Virus record (IMG/VR): IMGVR_UViG_3300028840_001835
DNA length: 64,000 nt
From: a virus
Taxonomy: Duplodnaviria > Caudoviricetes
Direction: 5' to 3' (one strand)
Part shown: positions 4,029-33,904 of the stretch, piece by piece
Position numbering within the stretch: position 1 is the first letter of the stretch
Layout: the number at the start of each line of letters is the position of its first letter
Translations under genes and position numbers: made by a program
Notes under the pieces: generated by a model
Databases searched by the model: none
Seen by the model: the letters and a program-made list of their open reading frames with translations, nothing else
What the model was told of the DNA's origin: nothing

Positions 4029-4146
4029 ACTTTCCTCCTTGTGCCCTTAGGTCACATTTCAATAATTGTTGAATGGTTATCCAATCCATCCATTCTCTTA
4101 ATGTAGAAATATTTATATCCTTTCGGTAGTATATTTTGGACTTAAT

Positions 4147-4764
4147 TTATCTCAATTTGTCAAACATTCCGATGTTACCTTTACAGTATTCCTTCAACTG
4201 TTTCAACCAGGCGTCTGACTTGATCTTGAACATCATGGGATAGGAGAACTTCTTAGGCCTCTCGGCACCCTTACACACCACACCTTCAAATGTCATCCCC
4301 TCAAGTGTCGAATCCTTCACGCTGTCAACAAAGTCCTTGGTGACCTCTCCTCTATATAGAAGGCGGGCCTCGAACCCAGAGTCCCCAAATAATTTAAGGA
4401 ACTCCTGCGGTGTCATTAACCCCTGCTTATATACACTAACATCAATCAACTTGACCTCATGTATCTCTTTGGTATGCTGACCAAACATTGAATGTTCGCC
4501 TAAGTATTCAAAGAAACAGATAACCTTCTGATATCTCTGTCGTTTGAATATATGATTGAAGTACGGCTCCGTGTTCTTTATCAGCTGCTTTGCCTCACCA
4601 AGAAGCGGATCATTCTCATCTAGTAATCTCCTCCGGGAACCAAACTTCCAGAATCCTTTTCTATGATCCCACTCCGCACGAACATTAGAACCATCGAGTT
4701 TATCAAACGCATAGACCTTGCCTGAATGATTTTTATAATGTGCTATGGTCATATACTCTTTCAT
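4147..4764 (-). CDS. RNA ligase-like nucleotidyltransferase
   Basis: Motif I DKLDGSN, FFEY, EGVV, FKIK. Confidence 0.75.
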   Translation of the reverse strand: MKEYMTIAHYKNHSGKVYAFDKLDGSNVRAEWDHRKGFWKFGSRRRLLDENDPLLGEAKQLIKNTEPYFNHIFKRQRYQKVICFFEYLGEHSMFGQHTKEIHEVKLIDVSVYKQGLMTPQEFLKLFGDSGFEARLLYRGEVTKDFVDSVKDSTLEGMTFEGVVCKGAERPKKFSYPMMFKIKSDAWLKQLKEYCKGNIGMFDKLR

Positions 4765-9129: not shown

Positions 9130-9206
9130 TGGTGACCAGGGTGGGGGTCGAACCCACACTGAACAGGGTTTAAGCCTGATCCCTCTTCCAGTTGGGGTAC
9201 CTGGCC
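9130..9206 (-). tRNA. tRNA-Leu(UAA), short variable arm
   Basis: Loop CT-TAA-AC; CCA. Confidence 0.88.
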
Positions 9207-9216
9207 TTCTAATGAA

Positions 9217-9244
9217 AATATAGTAAAGAAATTCGTTTTGTCAA
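9217..9244 (-). promoter_or_regulatory. sigma70-type promoter
   Basis: TTGACA-N16-TATATT. Confidence 0.7.
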
Positions 9245-27780: not shown

Positions 27781-27788
27781 TTTTCTTG

Positions 27789-28110
27789 TTCCAGAATCCT
27801 AAGTTATCATACCCGTTCCAAGATTCTCTCAAAAAACAGGCCATTAAGGCATACCCGTATAAGAATAACAATCCTTGATCAATGACTTTAATAATCTGGT
27901 ATGGGTTCTATTCCCTGGATCATAAATGACATGATAAGACCCTCCTCCAGATGCCCGAAACTCTATACCAGAGATGAATAACATCTTTCTCATACCTTCG
28001 CCTTTCAGAATATCAATAAATATACTAATGTGGAAGGTGGCCTCCTTATATCCGGGTCTTACCTTAATCATTTATTTTTGTTCCATATTCCAGAATCCTA
28101 AGTTATCATA
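27789..28110 (-). repeat. 23-bp direct repeat (27789-27811, 28088-28110), promoter/leader-like
   Basis: TATGATAACTTAGGATTCTGGAA just upstream of two consecutive start codons. Confidence 0.85.
27844..28071 (-). CDS. FLxG-family paralog
   Basis: RKMLFISGI. Confidence 0.75.
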   Translation of the reverse strand: MIKVRPGYKEATFHISIFIDILKGEGMRKMLFISGIEFRASGGGSYHVIYDPGNRTHTRLLKSLIKDCYSYTGMP

Positions 28111-28159
28111 TGGACCGGGGTCTGTCCAGAAAAAAGAGGGTATTAAGACGATGAGGGGG

Positions 28160-28245
28160 TCTGGGTTTTGGGTCTGGGTCCCTCCTGCAAGGCAAGACGT
28201 TTCTGGGTCCGGGTCTGGGTCCCTCGCAAAGCAAGACCATTTCAC
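28160..28245. repeat. imperfect tandem repeat, ~41 bp x2
   Basis: GGGTCTGGGTCCCTC..GCAA.GCAAGAC..TTTC twice. Confidence 0.7.
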
Positions 28246-28292
28246 GACCGCCGAAGAGAACTCTAAACGGTCCCTCCTTTTTCAAAAACGGC

Positions 28293-28479
28293 TTAATTCA
28301 GGGTATCTCTCACGACCACCCCGCTGTCAGGTTCATAGCATGGACCTATGGACCTCTCAATCCTCATCCGTTCTGTATGCTGTTCGGTGTCGTGTTTTAT
28401 ACATTCGGCGATCACGATCAAACAGACCACCCCCCAGGACGCCAGCAATCACATAAGACATTACCTCCTCCCAGTCCAT
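28293..28479 (-). pseudogene. membrane-anchored protein gene frameshifted in a G6 tract
   Basis: G5 would give MDWEEVMSYVIAGVLGVVCLIVIAEC...(61 aa), similar to the upstream neighbour. Confidence 0.6.
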
Positions 28480-28637
28480 CATGGCCCTCCTGTGGTGTCG
28501 ATGGGGAATGTGCAGTGGCGGAGCCGCTCCTCGAGCACTTTTATTTGAATCTCGCGGTTGTTACACTCGCTTACGAATATCATCACCACGGCGAACAGGA
28601 TTACAATCCATGCTATGATTAAATCAGATTTAGTCAT
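28479..28637 (-). CDS. small membrane-anchored protein (52 aa)
   Basis: MTKSDLIIAWIVILFAVVMIFVSECNNRE...; strong SD. Confidence 0.7.
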   Translation of the reverse strand: MTKSDLIIAWIVILFAVVMIFVSECNNREIQIKVLEERLRHCTFPIDTTGGP

Positions 28638-28668
28638 TCCTTCCTTTCATGTTTTGTTCTCAATTGAA

Positions 28669-28696
28669 AATATACTAAAGTTTTGGACTTTGTCAA
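28669..28696 (-). promoter_or_regulatory. left-arm sigma70-type promoter (twin of 33078)
   Basis: TTGACA-N16-TATATT. Confidence 0.8.
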
Positions 28697-28911
28697 CCAC
28701 CGGATGCTGGGGCCTTGGCGGGGTGGTGGCCGGGCTCTGGGTTGTGTTTTTGATTAAAAAGAAAGGGACCGGGGTGCCTGAATGTAGGGGGTTGGAGGTG
28801 GCAGCCCGGTCCCGGTGGGTGCGGGTGTCGTTCAGTATATCTCCTAGAACGCTTTCATGCCACCCTTTGGCGGGCACCCGCTGATGTGAGATAGGATCTT
28901 CCTCGACCTTC

Positions 28912-29109
28912 TCACCATCCTATCTTCTTTGAAATTACGGCTTTCATGCCGGGGGGTAATCTGGACCCTTTTTCTTCCATCACTTGGATGAAGTATTCGC
29001 CCGTGTCCCCGATGAACATAGAATCTCCAGACGGGGCGAAGCGGACGAGCCTAAGCATGACCTCATAGTCCATGTTGTCTATTGCCTTTTTTGTGTCTGG
29101 CGCTATCAT
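28912..29109 (-). CDS. conserved phage hypothetical protein
   Basis: IDNMDYE.MLR..RFAP.G..MF.G..GEYF...SKKIGW. Confidence 0.7.
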   Translation of the reverse strand: MIAPDTKKAIDNMDYEVMLRLVRFAPSGDSMFIGDTGEYFIQVMEEKGSRLPPGMKAVISKKIGW

Positions 29110-29121
29110 GTGATCTCCTTT

Positions 29122-29165
29122 TTAAAAGAAAAGATAAGGGATGAGGGAGCGACCCTCATCCCTGA
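29122..29165 (-). terminator. intrinsic terminator
   Basis: GGGATGAGGG/CCCTCATCCC stem followed by TTATCTTTTCTTTT. Confidence 0.8.
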
Positions 29166-29391
29166 ACCATGTTACGTTGGTGGGAGGGACGGATCAATTG
29201 ACTGCACAGTGCTTAACGATTATCGAGAGTCTAATGTTACAACGTGTGCACCACCCAGAGTAATCATGGTCACCGCTTTGTGAGCGGCTACTTGGTCGCC
29301 TCATCATGAACCCGCGAAAGCGGGCAGATAATAGGAAGTTTAATTATACCCCCAACTAACGACCAAGATTCCTTAAACAGAGAAAGGCCCC

Positions 29392-29571
29392 CTAGTGGAG
29401 GGAGCCATCTCGTCTTTGATACTTTCCATTACGCCGCAGAACCTCATGATAGGTCCTGGACAGCTTTTTGCCATTCTTGATAGTGGCGGTCTCCAAAACC
29501 ATCCGCTTGACGGCTACGGGAAACCCCTTCTTCATTGTCTTGGAAATAACCTTTGTCTCTATTGTTGCCAT
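29392..29571 (-). CDS. small basic protein (59 aa)
   Basis: MATIETKVISKTMKKG...; GGAGG SD; below ORF cutoff. Confidence 0.7.
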   Translation of the reverse strand: MATIETKVISKTMKKGFPVAVKRMVLETATIKNGKKLSRTYHEVLRRNGKYQRRDGSLH

Positions 29572-29827
29572 TCACTTAACCTCCGTTGATGTTTAATACC
29601 CCTAAAAAGACCGTTCTATATTTAGCCCACCGAACGGCAGGCGGGCCCTATTTGTCAACCGCGGGGCCGCGGCGTCCCGATTTGTTTTGTCTGGTCAGGG
29701 TGCCCAGAATTCTTTTAAATAATTAACGGCCCCCGTTAAGGTGGGGGCGAAACCTTGTCCACATTCAGGGCGGGACACACCTCTTATAAAGGGCCGTTGC
29801 CCCTTCGATGCTCTATCTACCACCAGT

Positions 29828-29858
29828 GCCCCGCCGACAAGAGCGATGTCGGCGGGGC
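29828..29858. repeat. perfect 12-bp inverted repeat
   Basis: GCCCCGCCGACA-N7-TGTCGGCGGGGC. Confidence 0.85.
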
Positions 29859-29882
29859 GATTTGACTGGGCAGTGGCGTCCG

Positions 29883-30290
29883 CTATTTCAGGTCAGCGGT
29901 GCCCAGGTAGTTCAGGTGCTCCTCGCAGAACCTGATATTCTCACCAGAGAGGCTGGAGGCACGAACCTTGGGAACGTGGGTGAGAACCTTGTAGGCACGC
30001 CGGGCCTGGGCGCCAGAAAACTTCTGGGTCACGCCGTTGGCCGTCAGGCTAATAGTGTAACGAGGATGCTTCAGAGCCTTGGACTCTTCCTGCCGCACCT
30101 CGATCACGGCGCCAGTTTTGGTTTTCTGGGAAACGAACCGCAGTCCGCTAAGGGCATTCCCGTCCTTGTCCTTGCCCGTGACTTTCTGGGCCTTGCCCAT
30201 CACGATGGTCTTGGCCTTGATGCCGTCCACGATCATCTTGGCATACTTCTGAGCGGCGGACAGGGGTTTGGGGGTTGACTTGTTGGCCAT
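29883..30290 (-). CDS. basic early protein (135 aa)
   Basis: GGAGG SD; first gene of the leftward operon; GC-rich codons. Confidence 0.75.
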   Translation of the reverse strand: MANKSTPKPLSAAQKYAKMIVDGIKAKTIVMGKAQKVTGKDKDGNALSGLRFVSQKTKTGAVIEVRQEESKALKHPRYTISLTANGVTQKFSGAQARRAYKVLTHVPKVRASSLSGENIRFCEEHLNYLGTADLK

Positions 30291-30352
30291 GTTGGCCTCC
30301 TTTCGGATAAAGGGTGGTTGATGAAAAAACTAATTAACTAACTGTTACTATA

Positions 30353-30381
30353 ATTATAACACGAAAAACCCTTTCCGTCAA
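30353..30381 (-). promoter_or_regulatory. leftward divergent promoter
   Basis: TTGACG-N17-TATAAT with extended -10. Confidence 0.85.
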
Positions 30382-30579
30382 GAAAAAAATGGACTTTCTC
30401 CAAAAATAATTAACCCTTATTCTAGACCGTAAACCGGGGACCTGTTTCATTCATCATAACCCGTTGATCTATAAGGGCTTAGAAGGATCGGGCTCGGGCC
30501 CCGGAAATTAGCGGAATTTCGGGACCTTCTAGATTCCTGTTTTTGATTCAAATACCGTGATCTGGGGCAGGTTTTTCCC

Positions 30580-30608
30580 TTGAGGTTTATTCAGAAGGTT
30601 GTTATAAT
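30580..30608 (+). promoter_or_regulatory. rightward divergent promoter
   Basis: TTGAGG-N17-TATAAT; shares TGTTATAATTATAGT with the leftward promoter. Confidence 0.8.
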
Positions 30609-30645
30609 TATAGTATAAACAACAGGTTAACAAAGGAAGGAAATA

Positions 30646-32877
30646 ATGAAACTTGAACTTAACAGCATCCTCGAATGGACCACCGACTCAGGCGATAGCC
30701 AGGGAATCGTTGCCAGCCCCTTGTTTGAATATGATTTCAATAATTACCCCGATGACGCCTTTATCCCCTGCTACAAACTCAAGAGCCTGCGCAGCACCCG
30801 GACCCGTCACTGGATTGAGGTCAAGGTGATGAAGAAAAATCTCAAATGGGCGGGGTTCTACTCGAAACTTGAAAAGATACTCAATGATAGAATGGAGTAT
30901 AATCGCCAGCGGGCCGCCCAACGGAGACAGGCACGGAGACGGGATTTCGACCCCGCTGCTTTCACAAGGGCTCTGAACAACACCATCAAGAAATTCAATC
31001 TGGACTAATCAAATGAAAGATTTTTCAATAACTATGATCGGGTTCGGGGTTGCCGCTTCTATAGGTCTCGCCGTGCCCTTCATGGTTATGTACCACGATG
31101 TTTATTTCTGTAAAATGATTTTAACTTTAATTCAAATTAAACTCAAAACAAGGAGAGCGTAATGAAAGAACTGGCTAAAATAGTTTCCAAGAATCTGATC
31201 GAGATGGGGGCGGACGGGTTCACCATCGTGATCGAAAATGACTCGATTCATGTGACCAAGACCGTGGGGTTGGTGGCTTGGATTCTTATAGTCGTGCCCC
31301 AGGCTTATTCGTTAGTCAGGCGATATGACATGAATGTGATTCCCCTTGAACCCGAGACCGTCAAGTGCACTGGTTGTATCAAAGAGGCCATTGCCTACTA
31401 CACCGGGGCCGTAATGATAGGGGGTAAATAATGGACTTTGAACTTGAGGAAAGAAAAGAGAAGGTCAGGAACGCCCAGCGTAACCCCAACACCCTGGGGC
31501 CCAACGGGGGCTTCAAGTTAATCTGGGGCTGGGTCAAACAGGGGGCCATTGACTTCAAACAGTATTTGGAGCTGATCGATGCGGCAACCCCTACCACGGA
31601 GCTTTACGAATACAACTGCCCCGCCTGTAAATGTACGACCACTTTAAAATGTGACCACTGCGGGGACATTATCTTAATTAAAGGGAGGCAGATATGAGAA
31701 AACCAACAATCTATGACATAGCCAGGGCGACCGAGGAGAAGCAGCCCCATTTCTTCACCCGAAAAACTCTCAAGTTCTTCAACCAGACTATGAGGGATTT
31801 CTCAGTCTGGAAGCAGGACGGTCGGGTGTTCATCACCGCCCCAATGAAAGATGGCCGCGGGCACATAATCGGTTATACTCACCGCGAGTTCACCGGGGAT
31901 GATCTTATTCATTTTAACCCAGAGGAGGTATAACATGAACCTGAAAGTTAAAGCAAAGGTGGGGATCGGTTATGATTACAAAAAGAATGAATATGTGGAG
32001 GGGATGAAGGAGGTCGAGGTCCTGACCATCCATTTCGAGAAGAACACGATGCGGGTCCGCTATAAGGCAGACTTCTGGGGGGATGGTGTGAGGACCCATG
32101 TGGACAACATCCCCGCGGACCCGTTCTTTGAGCAGTATCAAATAAACAAAAAGGAGGCGTAAAATGATGACACCAAGAGACCCTGATTTTCTGGACCCCG
32201 AAATAACCCCAGACCCCATGCAGCCCGAGTTCTTATTGAGGGCTGGCATGAGCCCCACCCGGACCCCGAAGCTCTGGAGCCTCTTTACGGGCGAGACCCA
32301 GGGGAGCCGGGAGCGCGGTCACATCACAAGGGACGACATGACCAACCTCAAGATATCCCTGGGCATCACCGAGTCTGTGGATGATTTTCTCAAACAATTA
32401 AACTAAGGGGATCAAAATGGAAACAATAATCTGGTATAGTATAAGAAATGGTGGGGATGGTTCTGCATTTCCCATCTTTTTTGAATCAAAAGAACTTGCC
32501 GAGATCGACCAGGAATATCTGGACGAAGGATGGGGCGAGTCTTGCGTTGGTCCCTTGATGATAACTTCCGATGGTCCCATCTCAATAAAGCCGTTCATGA
32601 CCCAGGAAGATTACATTAAAGAGATCGAGGAAGAACTGGAGTATGCGGAATCAGGAAAACTAAGAGAGAAACTTCAGAAAGTAATCGACCTTTATTAAAG
32701 GAGAACATCATGACAAAAGAAGAGGCTATTAATTACTGTTATAATCACAGGGATGAATACATTCGGGACTCCGAAAACATTGATCAGGGGATCCGGCAAT
32801 TCGATTGTCTTATCGCCTGCCTCGAGTCCGGGACCATAACCCCAGAACAGCTCCCGGACTACGGAATGGAATACTAA
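30646..32877 (+). other. operon of ~9 small hypothetical early genes (30646-31008, 31162-31431, 31431-31697 Zn finger, 31694-31933, 31935-32162, 32164-32406, 32417-32698, 32710-32877)
   Basis: Tightly packed ORFs with SD sites; GC-richer than the flanks. Confidence 0.75.
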
Positions 32878-33077
32878 TCGACCTATAATCTAAAGACCCA
32901 CACACCGCTGATACGCCTCGTATCAGCGGCCGGGAGCCCGCGCCCCGACCACCATCATTTAAAGCAAGACTCCCCACCCAGAGCCCGGCCACACCCGCAG
33001 TTCTCGCTATGGGGACCCCCTTTAAAACGACCAGCTTTCAACGATTAGGTCCAAAAGTGAGGTCCAAAGAAACTAGC

Positions 33078-33105
33078 TTGACAAAGTCCAAATCTTTACT
33101 ATGTT
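33078..33105 (+). promoter_or_regulatory. right-arm sigma70-type promoter (twin of 28669)
   Basis: TTGACA-N16-TATGTT; 29/32 identical to the left twin. Confidence 0.8.
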
Positions 33106-33129
33106 TTCATTAAGAAAGGAGAACCCGTT

Positions 33130-33405
33130 ATGACAAACGAAAAAGATCCATGCAACCCGGGTTGCAGTTCATGCAGAAGCAACGATACTGGTCGCTGTAA
33201 AAAAACCGCATTCATTGTACATAGACCCCATGGCGATGAAACTGTGATGCACTATTGCAGGGATGCGAACAAGAATCGCCAGTGCAAGGACTGGGAGCCA
33301 CGGACCGTCATGCAGAAACTCGGGCCCGTCTTAGGGGCCATTGGTCTCTTTGTCGGCGTCCCCGGTGTAATAGTATTATTCTCAGTTCTTGTGGCAGGGC
33401 TCTGA
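33130..33405 (+). CDS. Cys-rich protein with C-terminal TM
   Basis: C..C..C...C...C...N....C..W, hydrophobic tail. Confidence 0.7.
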   Translation: MTNEKDPCNPGCSSCRSNDTGRCKKTAFIVHRPHGDETVMHYCRDANKNRQCKDWEPRTVMQKLGPVLGAIGLFVGVPGVIVLFSVLVAGL

Positions 33406-33592
33406 GATTCAGGGGTGGTCTCGCAAAATATGGCCCTCGCCGGAGACACGCCGAAATGGTACCGTGGCCGCAGTCATTTCACCCTGATATCCCGGTCCAG
33501 GGCAGCCCAGGGCGGTCCTCCGGGATATGGACTGATCGGACAGCCGCCGGACCGGTTATTTGGGGTTTTGAGTTATTGAAAGGAGATTCATC

Positions 33593-33904
33593 TTGATTCC
33601 TGATTTAAGATTTAAAGTAGTCACGGCCACAAGCTGGTTCTTTTACACGGGTTCTGGTTTATGGAGATTGGAGGCTACTTATGAACTCTCTAAACTCTTG
33701 TTCCTTAAGGGTATGGGATCTGGGAGACCCTCAAAAATATCAACATTTTACATATACAATAATCTTGAGGTTGATATGATGCTTGAGATTATTATTCTTT
33801 TTCATGAAACGGGTATTACTATATTCTCTGGAGGGGGACATTGGGTTCCTTCTTTTATTTCTGCTTATAAACGGCTGGGTGAATGTGAATATGGCACACT
33901 TTGA
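33593..33904 (+). CDS. FLxG-family paralog
   Basis: SKLLFLKGM. Confidence 0.75.
   Translation: MIPDLRFKVVTATSWFFYTGSGLWRLEATYELSKLLFLKGMGSGRPSKISTFYIYNNLEVDMMLEIIILFHETGITIFSGGGHWVPSFISAYKRLGECEYGTL

Follow-up and report, generated by a model that had tools for sequence, protein, structure and literature searches.

The 64,000-nucleotide stretch of DNA analysed here (the window) is from IMG/VR record IMGVR_UViG_3300028840_001835, a virus of the Caudoviricetes (Duplodnaviria). The orientation of its local genes changes twice: they are on the minus strand until about 30.3 kb, switch to the plus strand at 30.6 kb and return to the minus strand at about 47 kb. The first of these strand switches falls within a region of about 4.4 kb (28661-33112), termed the hub, in which promoters and inverted repeats are laid out in a nearly mirrored order between two arrays of paralogous genes. 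These arrays, the left and right arms, make up about one-fifth of the window and encode some 44 divergent versions of a single orphan early protein. The hub is probably where early transcription diverges in a large T4-like phage that has not been cultured.

At the centre of the hub, two promoters stand back to back with their -35 hexamers 198 bp apart. The inner left promoter (30353-30381, minus strand) consists of TTGACG, a 17-nt spacer and the extended -10 element TGTTATAAT, and the inner right promoter (30580-30608, plus strand) of TTGAGG, a spacer of the same length and the same extended -10 element. They match the sigma-70 consensus at 11 and 10 of 12 positions, respectively, and TG is present in both. 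The pair has in common an exact 16-mer, present as an inverted repeat (30346-30361 and 30600-30615), that comprises the extended -10 element and the discriminator (TGTTATAATTATAGTA) and within which TGTTATAAT lies.

Two outer promoters point away from the centre, each at the start of one arm. The left one (28665-28696, minus strand) has a -35 hexamer TTGACA at 28691-28696, a 16-nt spacer and a -10 hexamer TATATT at 28669-28674, and matches the consensus at 11 of 12 positions. It is followed by the ribosome-binding site AAAGGAAGGA and by the ATG of the gene at 28479-28637, 31 nt past the -10 hexamer. The right one (33078-33109, plus strand) has TTGACA, a 16-nt spacer and TATGTT, followed by a ribosome-binding site and by the ATG of the gene at 33130-33405, 24 nt past the -10 hexamer. 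In both cases, the first gene is a small membrane-protein gene and the arm continues beyond it. All four sites in the hub score 10-11 of 12 as sigma-70 promoters. They are credible as promoters of this type and head divergent units in the orientations proposed by a first-pass annotation of the same sequence.

The outer promoters constitute a 32-nt inverted repeat in which 29 of 32 positions are complementary. A 17-mer that reads ACCCAGAGCCCGGCCAC on the outward sense strand stands upstream of each, at 28726-28742 (minus strand) on the left and at 32976-32992 (plus strand) on the right. The 32-nt, 17-mer and 16-mer inverted repeats were all recovered where the first-pass annotation had placed them, and all exceed chance. 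Exact inverted pairs of at least 16 nt number three in a 10-kb region, against 0.02 in shuffled sequence. The same annotation described the arrangement as a mirror image. This description suits the order of the elements, but not their spacing. The left outer promoter is about 1.8 kb from the centre and the right one about 2.6 kb, and the gap between the 17-mer and the -35 hexamer downstream of it is 29 bp on the left and 85 bp on the right. The mirrored order can be attributed to divergence of the two sides combined with repeated use of a single promoter consensus.

The hub also differs from its surroundings in composition. Its core has a GC content of 0.495 compared to 0.36-0.39 in the arms, and GC skew is +0.02 in the core, -0.26 in the left arm and +0.21 in the right arm. 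The core is thus GC-richer, as first described, but the GC-rich zone extends from about 28.25 to 34.5 kb and the repeats are not its borders. Coding sequence occupies 68% of the core and non-coding sequence 32%. A proposed richness in short words is modest, at about two-fold for GACC and ACCC, each with 37 copies against 17 expected, and weak for GGTC (22 against 16). Runs of GGGG and CCCC are present as well, and 11 of the 20 copies of GGGACC in the window fall within 28.2-33.0 kb.

Early-type promoters across the window

Both outer promoters belong to a family that recurs throughout the window. The exact pattern TTGACA-N16/17-TATATT occurs six times, against 0.04 expected, and relaxing the -10 hexamer to TAYRTT yields eight copies, against 0.11 expected. 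Family copies usually carry TTTAC before the -10 hexamer and TT(CA) after it. All ten listed copies are co-oriented with the local genes, and those located before protein genes are followed by a ribosome-binding site and a start codon 24-38 nt past the -10 hexamer.

The first-pass annotation singled out the outer promoters as twins. However, pairwise identity across the family is 20-29 of 32 positions, and each twin also matches the family members at 9244 and 52910, both over 19 kb distant, at 24-26 of 32 positions. They are no special pair, because their likeness is mostly the consensus of the window-wide family. What is specific to the two is mainly AGTCCAAA in the spacer. Two GGTCCAAA words, located 13 nt apart at 33048-33068 (plus strand) shortly before the right outer promoter, echo this spacer sequence and are the only copies in the window. 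The exact twin-promoter pattern is absent from IMG/VR. A promoter-like sequence at 4128-4155 (minus strand), TTGAGA-16-TATACT, also contains AGTCCAAA in its spacer, where it is placed beside the -10 hexamer.

The minus strand of the window carries 34 tRNA genes and one tmRNA gene. A family promoter at 9217-9244 (minus strand) stands directly before a tRNA-Leu gene (9130-9206), and at least part of the tRNA array appears to have a promoter of the early type.

Dozens of early promoters are found in T4-like phages, where they have a consensus particular to the phage and precede novel open reading frames (ORFs) and tRNA genes (Nolan et al. 2006, PMC1524935). The family described here resembles them in having many copies of host type and a phage-specific consensus that reaches beyond both hexamers, in placing these copies in the correct orientation 5' of small novel ORFs and tRNA genes, and in being accompanied by a separate late motif, TATAAATA. 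The sequences themselves differ, with GTTTAC...TATAAT in T4 and TTGACA-N16-(TAC)TATATT here. Also unlike the T4-like early promoters, two of the copies here are mirrored around a core that has its own, different promoter pair. Judged by sequence, the outer promoters fit a T4-like early promoter family in their hexamers and spacing, in their repetition with an extended consensus, and in their placement and orientation. The architecture of the hub is ordinary for a T4-like early region, and only the 17-mer inverted repeat is left unexplained by it.

TATAAATA, the T4-type late-promoter word, occurs 14 times in the window compared to 4.9 expected, and 13 of the 14 copies are on the local gene strand. 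Between 20005 and 47041, it does not occur at all, such that the hub and both paralog arms form a block free of late promoters. Because of this absence, the hub and arms plausibly constitute an early region. The more specific proposal that they are pre-early, or expressed first of all, finds nothing in its favour, and both kinds of promoter look like host sigma-70 promoters. Unlike a T5-type pre-early region, the hub is not located in a terminal repeat at the physical end of a genome.

The hub probably sets the expression of both arrays, and it is a natural place to look for control of the gene family that they carry. The DNA ligase of the phage has at most 35% identity to the ligase of any cultured phage, and a blastn search of 28-34 kb against 50,697 phage records gives no match.

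Inner operons and boundary spacers

The left inner promoter faces a unit that consists, in order, of a 135-amino-acid (aa) gene, GC-rich hairpins, a 59-aa gene with a terminator, a 213-nt structured stretch and a 65-aa gene. The 135-aa gene (29883-30290, minus strand) is the first of the operon and belongs to a small undescribed family. The 59-aa gene (29392-29571, minus strand) encodes a basic orphan protein, has a GGAGG ribosome-binding site, and is followed by the terminator at 29386-29406. The 65-aa orphan gene (28912-29109, minus strand) has an AGGAG ribosome-binding site and no Pfam or PHROG match.

The structured stretch (29128-29340, minus strand) is non-coding, with a minimum free energy of -74.5 kcal/mol (z -4.5), and ends in a strong intrinsic terminator at 29137-29163. 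It sits between two terminators, its own closely preceding the ribosome-binding site from which the 65-aa gene would be translated, and is a candidate for a small RNA or an attenuating leader. A search of Rfam over 28.3-33.3 kb, this stretch included, returns no match.

On the other side, the right inner operon (30646-32877, plus strand) contains nine tightly packed small genes of 49-120 aa, most with their own ribosome-binding sites. Pfam and PHROG scans covered ten proteins, namely those of eight of the 12 core genes, the product of 31936-32162 taken from an upstream start, and the protein of the first right-arm gene; 31013-31162, 32710-32877 and 28479-28637 lay outside them. The only family match in the right operon is to DUF7447 (gene 31694-31933). 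On the functions of hub proteins, these scans, profile searches against PDB and searches of the ESM Atlas give nothing usable. In the central spacer between the two inner promoters, a 9-bp dyad (30501-30523) is not claimed as an element, as it has an estimated chance frequency of about 0.2 per region.

Each inner unit ends in a spacer of 200-215 bp that separates it from the outer promoter, with fold z-scores of -2.6 on the left and -5.0 on the right. Over most of each spacer, the sense strand has 24-31 C and 6-14 G per 60 nt. Skew measured on the plus strand is +0.23 in the left spacer and -0.29 in the right, which means that both are C-rich on the outward sense strand. In the left spacer, a terminator-like hairpin (28756-28813, minus strand) with a 9+4 bp stem and a 21-nt loop is followed by a U-run at the end of the inner operon, and 120-nt windows around it have z-scores of -3.6 to -4.4. 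In the right spacer, a perfect 11-bp hairpin (32905-32929, plus strand) follows the last gene of the operon; it has no U-run and is not called an intrinsic terminator. A second predicted hairpin of 69 nt (32958-33026) contains the right copy of the 17-mer; the left copy is unpaired in the centroid RNA fold. These structures end 58 nt upstream of the -35 hexamer on the left, and about 150 and 52 nt upstream on the right. The second-tier spacers further out (28095-28295 and 33400-33600) have no similarity to one another and no unusual structure.

Cassettes that combine a promoter with a stem-loop (PeSL) are known from the hyperplastic regions of T4-like phages (Arbiol et al. 2010, PMC2839356; Comeau et al. 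2014, PMC4122927), where GGGC/GCCC motifs have been linked to cassette recombination events (PMC2839356). The boundaries of the hub resemble these cassettes in coupling a repeated early promoter to a G/C-rich stem-loop that would end upstream transcription. They also lie among the orphan genes of plastic regions and contain short identical patches that are possible points of recombination. However, the stem-loops here are 58-150 nt upstream of the promoter rather than inside or adjacent to it, and the 29 nt upstream of the left -35 hexamer are GC-rich rather than AT-rich, with a moderately AT-rich tract on the right. Because of these differences in stem-loop position and AT-rich tract, the boundary units are not filed as PeSLs. 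Most family promoters in the window also have no stem-loop, and the 17-mer has no PeSL counterpart.

The 17-mer repeat and possible control of the arms

The two copies of the 17-mer match at 17/17 positions, identity immediately outside them is only about 50%, and the left and right versions of the DNA separating 17-mer and promoter are too different to align. Abrupt patches of identity like these point to selection on a discrete element or to recent short-patch conversion. No further exact copy exists within the window, where a search allowing up to three mismatches finds three sites against 0.01-0.04 expected from shuffles. The additional site (33391-33407, minus strand) is a possible degenerate copy that matches at 14 of 17 positions. 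Its orientation is opposite to that of the right copy, and it overlaps the first right-arm gene at the stop codon. The motif scan called for by the first-pass annotation indicates specificity to the hub within the window and yields only chance-level matches elsewhere. In IMG/VR, there are eight exact matches, each single, on unrelated contigs and mostly in coding sequence. Seven of these contigs have GC contents of 0.59-0.67 and one of 0.47. As a candidate cis-element, the 17-mer is short, clearly delimited and open to testing. Because its flanks have diverged too far to align and the proteins of the two arms share only 25-36% identity, retention by selection is favoured over a neutral remnant, and the chance that it is a functional site, acting on DNA or in RNA, is put at slightly below even.

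Words akin to the 17-mer occur nearby. ACCCAGA[GC]CCC is found 11 times against 1.0 expected, and ACCCAGACCC words are repeated at 28156-28225. Within 28150-28230 (minus strand), there are two copies of GAGGGACCCAGACCC at a distance of 41 nt and a further two ACCCAGA words close by, all resembling the first half of the 17-mer. This stretch is either non-coding or a proline-rich ORF of low complexity. A coding explanation of the repeats was rejected, as the promoter copies would be in different frames relative to the 17-mer and the only ORFs across the 17-mer are implausible.

These elements can be joined in a simple scheme. The two near-consensus, back-to-back sigma-70 promoters would fire two short operons of small orphan genes. 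The structured, C-rich boundary spacers probably stop or damp read-through from these operons. After each spacer, a standard early promoter of the form TTGACA-N16-(TAC)TATATT(TTCA) would restart transcription into the long paralog arm. The 17-mer would then be a sequence-specific site at the boundary between operon and arm, serving as either a protein-binding site on DNA or a signal in read-through RNA.

Several observations weigh against this scheme and against the T4-like setting in which it is placed. The activities of promoters and terminators are predictions. Only three of about ten family promoters have a clear stem-loop upstream, so the idea of a promoter/stem-loop cassette is not general. 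The right spacer contains no canonical intrinsic terminator, which makes insulation on that side uncertain. The 17-mer is not a dyad and keeps no fixed distance to a promoter or hairpin; its surroundings on the two sides have no RNA structure in common, and the window offers no third exact copy. Finally, the T4-like label leans on the enrichment of TATAAATA, and no T4 core genes lie within the window.

If the 17-mer acts on DNA, it could be an operator: a single regulator, of phage or host origin, would occupy both copies and jointly control the outer promoters and arms, possibly by looping. Consistent with this role, the repeat is exact amid diverged DNA, it is hub-specific, and its two copies face their respective arms in the same way. 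The 14/17 copy, 415 bp downstream of the right copy, would bracket the right promoter, and related ACCCAGA[GC]CCC words cluster 500-580 bp further out in the left arm. However, the 17-mer is not a dyad, overlaps no promoter, and lies 29 and 85 bp from the respective -35 hexamers. No helix-turn-helix or other recognisable DNA-binding domain is present in the scanned hub proteins, and the model of the 135-aa protein matches no DNA-binding fold. An operator of this kind is rather unlikely. In an elaborated form, the 17-mer pair, perhaps with the 14/17 copy and the nearby ACCCAGA[GC]CCC and GTCCAAA words, would together form an array bound by a hub-encoded regulator that is so far undescribed. The 135-aa and 59-aa orphan proteins are candidates for such a regulator, which would gate the boundary between inner operon and arm. 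This elaboration is quite unlikely, but if true it would place about 44 copies of one early gene family under a single switch. A somewhat doubtful possibility of a different kind is that the boundaries are copies of one mobile promoter/terminator cassette, with patches of identity left by duplication or short-patch gene conversion and a 17-mer that has no function. Recombination between repeated promoter cassettes is known in the hyperplastic regions of T4-like phages (PMC2839356), the hub lies between two arrays of orphan paralogs, and weak similarity persists about 25 nt upstream of the 17-mer. Yet the arm genes are very old duplicates, and no third cassette with a 17-mer is found in the window. 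Moreover, because the patches of 17 and 32 nt are split by unalignable DNA of unequal length, such a remnant requires two events, or a later indel followed by fast decay. The 17-mer might instead act in read-through transcripts, where it could contribute to a Rho-loading (rut) region, mark a site of processing or serve in nut-like antitermination. Both copies read alike on the outward sense strand and sit in C-rich, G-poor spacers, and variable distance to a promoter is normal for RNA signals. Such a role is nevertheless decidedly unlikely, given that the left copy follows a hairpin and U-run and may never be contained in most transcripts, that no hairpin or other structure is common to the two copies, that a rut region requires no exact 17-nt sequence, and that the spacers are highly structured, unlike typical rut sites. 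In lambda, the OL and OR operators and the nutL and nutR sites are mirrored in two divergent early operons. The hub is similar in having short, near-identical inverted elements in divergent early units at unequal distances from their promoters. Unlike in lambda, no repressor, N-like protein or boxB-type hairpin is found here, and the 17-mer, which overlaps no promoter, is placed after the inner-operon hairpins and before the arm promoters.

Other explanations assign the hub a role outside gene control. The first-pass annotation suggested a genome terminus or an origin, which is very unlikely. Cumulative GC skew reaches its minimum at 28-33 kb, the non-coding fraction of the hub is unusually large, the direct repeats at 28156-28225 are iteron-like, and T4 origins are promoter-dependent. 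However, the sign of the skew is that of the coding strand everywhere, this strand being G-rich, and it flips back at 47 kb along with gene orientation. Because it follows the coding strand, the skew carries no independent replication signal, and the apparent origin is an effect of coding-strand composition. Neither a cluster of DnaA boxes nor an initiator-like gene among the scanned hub proteins was found. As for a terminus, the hub is at least 28 kb from either end of the window, internal to continuous, unique sequence on both sides with no long direct repeat, and T4-like genomes are circularly permuted; these two circumstances make a terminus very improbable. The inverted repeats might also be crossover sites between which the 4.3-kb core flips. 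As in the Gin, Hin and Cin systems and the shufflons, short inverted repeats (exact over 17 nt and 29/32) flank a segment of a few kb. Unlike those systems, no recombinase gene or domain is present among the ten scanned hub and arm-head proteins, the repeats lack both dyad symmetry and a dyad core, and target-site duplications are absent. Inversion would leave the outward-facing outer promoters unaffected, with no evident effect on expression and nothing obvious switched, and this possibility is extremely remote. A mobile element was rejected for want of target-site duplications and a transposase. An inverted segmental duplication of the arms is not supported, as BLASTP gives only four weak matches between them. 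Paralog proteins matched across the arms are 25-36% identical, and their order is not clearly mirrored.

Relatives of the 135-aa protein and minor features

The 135-aa protein has three close homologues. The identical protein is encoded on two other contigs, and two homologues are 65% and 63% identical. Its family, with 26 representatives at E <0.001, corresponds to about 26 sequence clusters of 94-161 aa and is undescribed. Conserved features include an N-terminal AKxIVxxIK helix and the motifs KNPRY and FSGxxARxAY. The AlphaFold2 model of the protein has a pLDDT of 85. Neither of two such models (pLDDT 78 and 85) has a significant fold match, with Foldseek searches of PDB and BFVD giving only E >0.001. 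A likeness to an anti-sigma factor (best VIA Z 5.9) was set aside as within noise, with a root-mean-square deviation of 5.2 Å. Scans of IMG/VR with the 135-aa protein and three alignments reveal no relative, and a scan of bacterial and archaeal genomes yields nothing.

One relative locus was compared, a 4.4-kb metagenome sequence (L009) that encodes a 48% identical homologue at 2422-2805. There, the homologous gene is also located at a divergent junction, adjoining a gene of the sigma-70 family. L009 contains two TTGACA-16/17-TATATT promoters, one of which, with a spacer of 16, is positioned to drive the orthologue of the 135-aa gene. These similarities suggest that the lineage inherited its divergent core from an ancestor and has conserved the TATATT type of promoter. 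They also suggest that a difference in timing need not lie behind the two types of promoter in the hub. The consensus TTGACA-N16-(TAC)TATATT, common to a relative at this level of protein identity, should be usable as an early-promoter consensus for the uncultured lineage. The 17-mer is absent from L009, which is too distant and too short for this absence to count against it. A similarity between L009 796-1212 and window positions 32164-32406 (E 0.002 as a single comparison) fails correction for multiple testing and was discarded.

Two observations concern the left arm. A 30-nt direct repeat with 90% identity (27782-27811 and 28081-28110) is located at the starts of two neighbouring genes and is a sign of recent local duplication. 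The second gene of the arm (28293-28482, minus strand) is apparently split across two frames at a C6/G6 run (28430-28435, six G). Its pieces, a 41-aa ORF at 28357-28482 and a 51-aa ORF at 28293-28448, would when joined make one membrane protein, the split reflecting either a frameshift or a homopolymer sequencing error.

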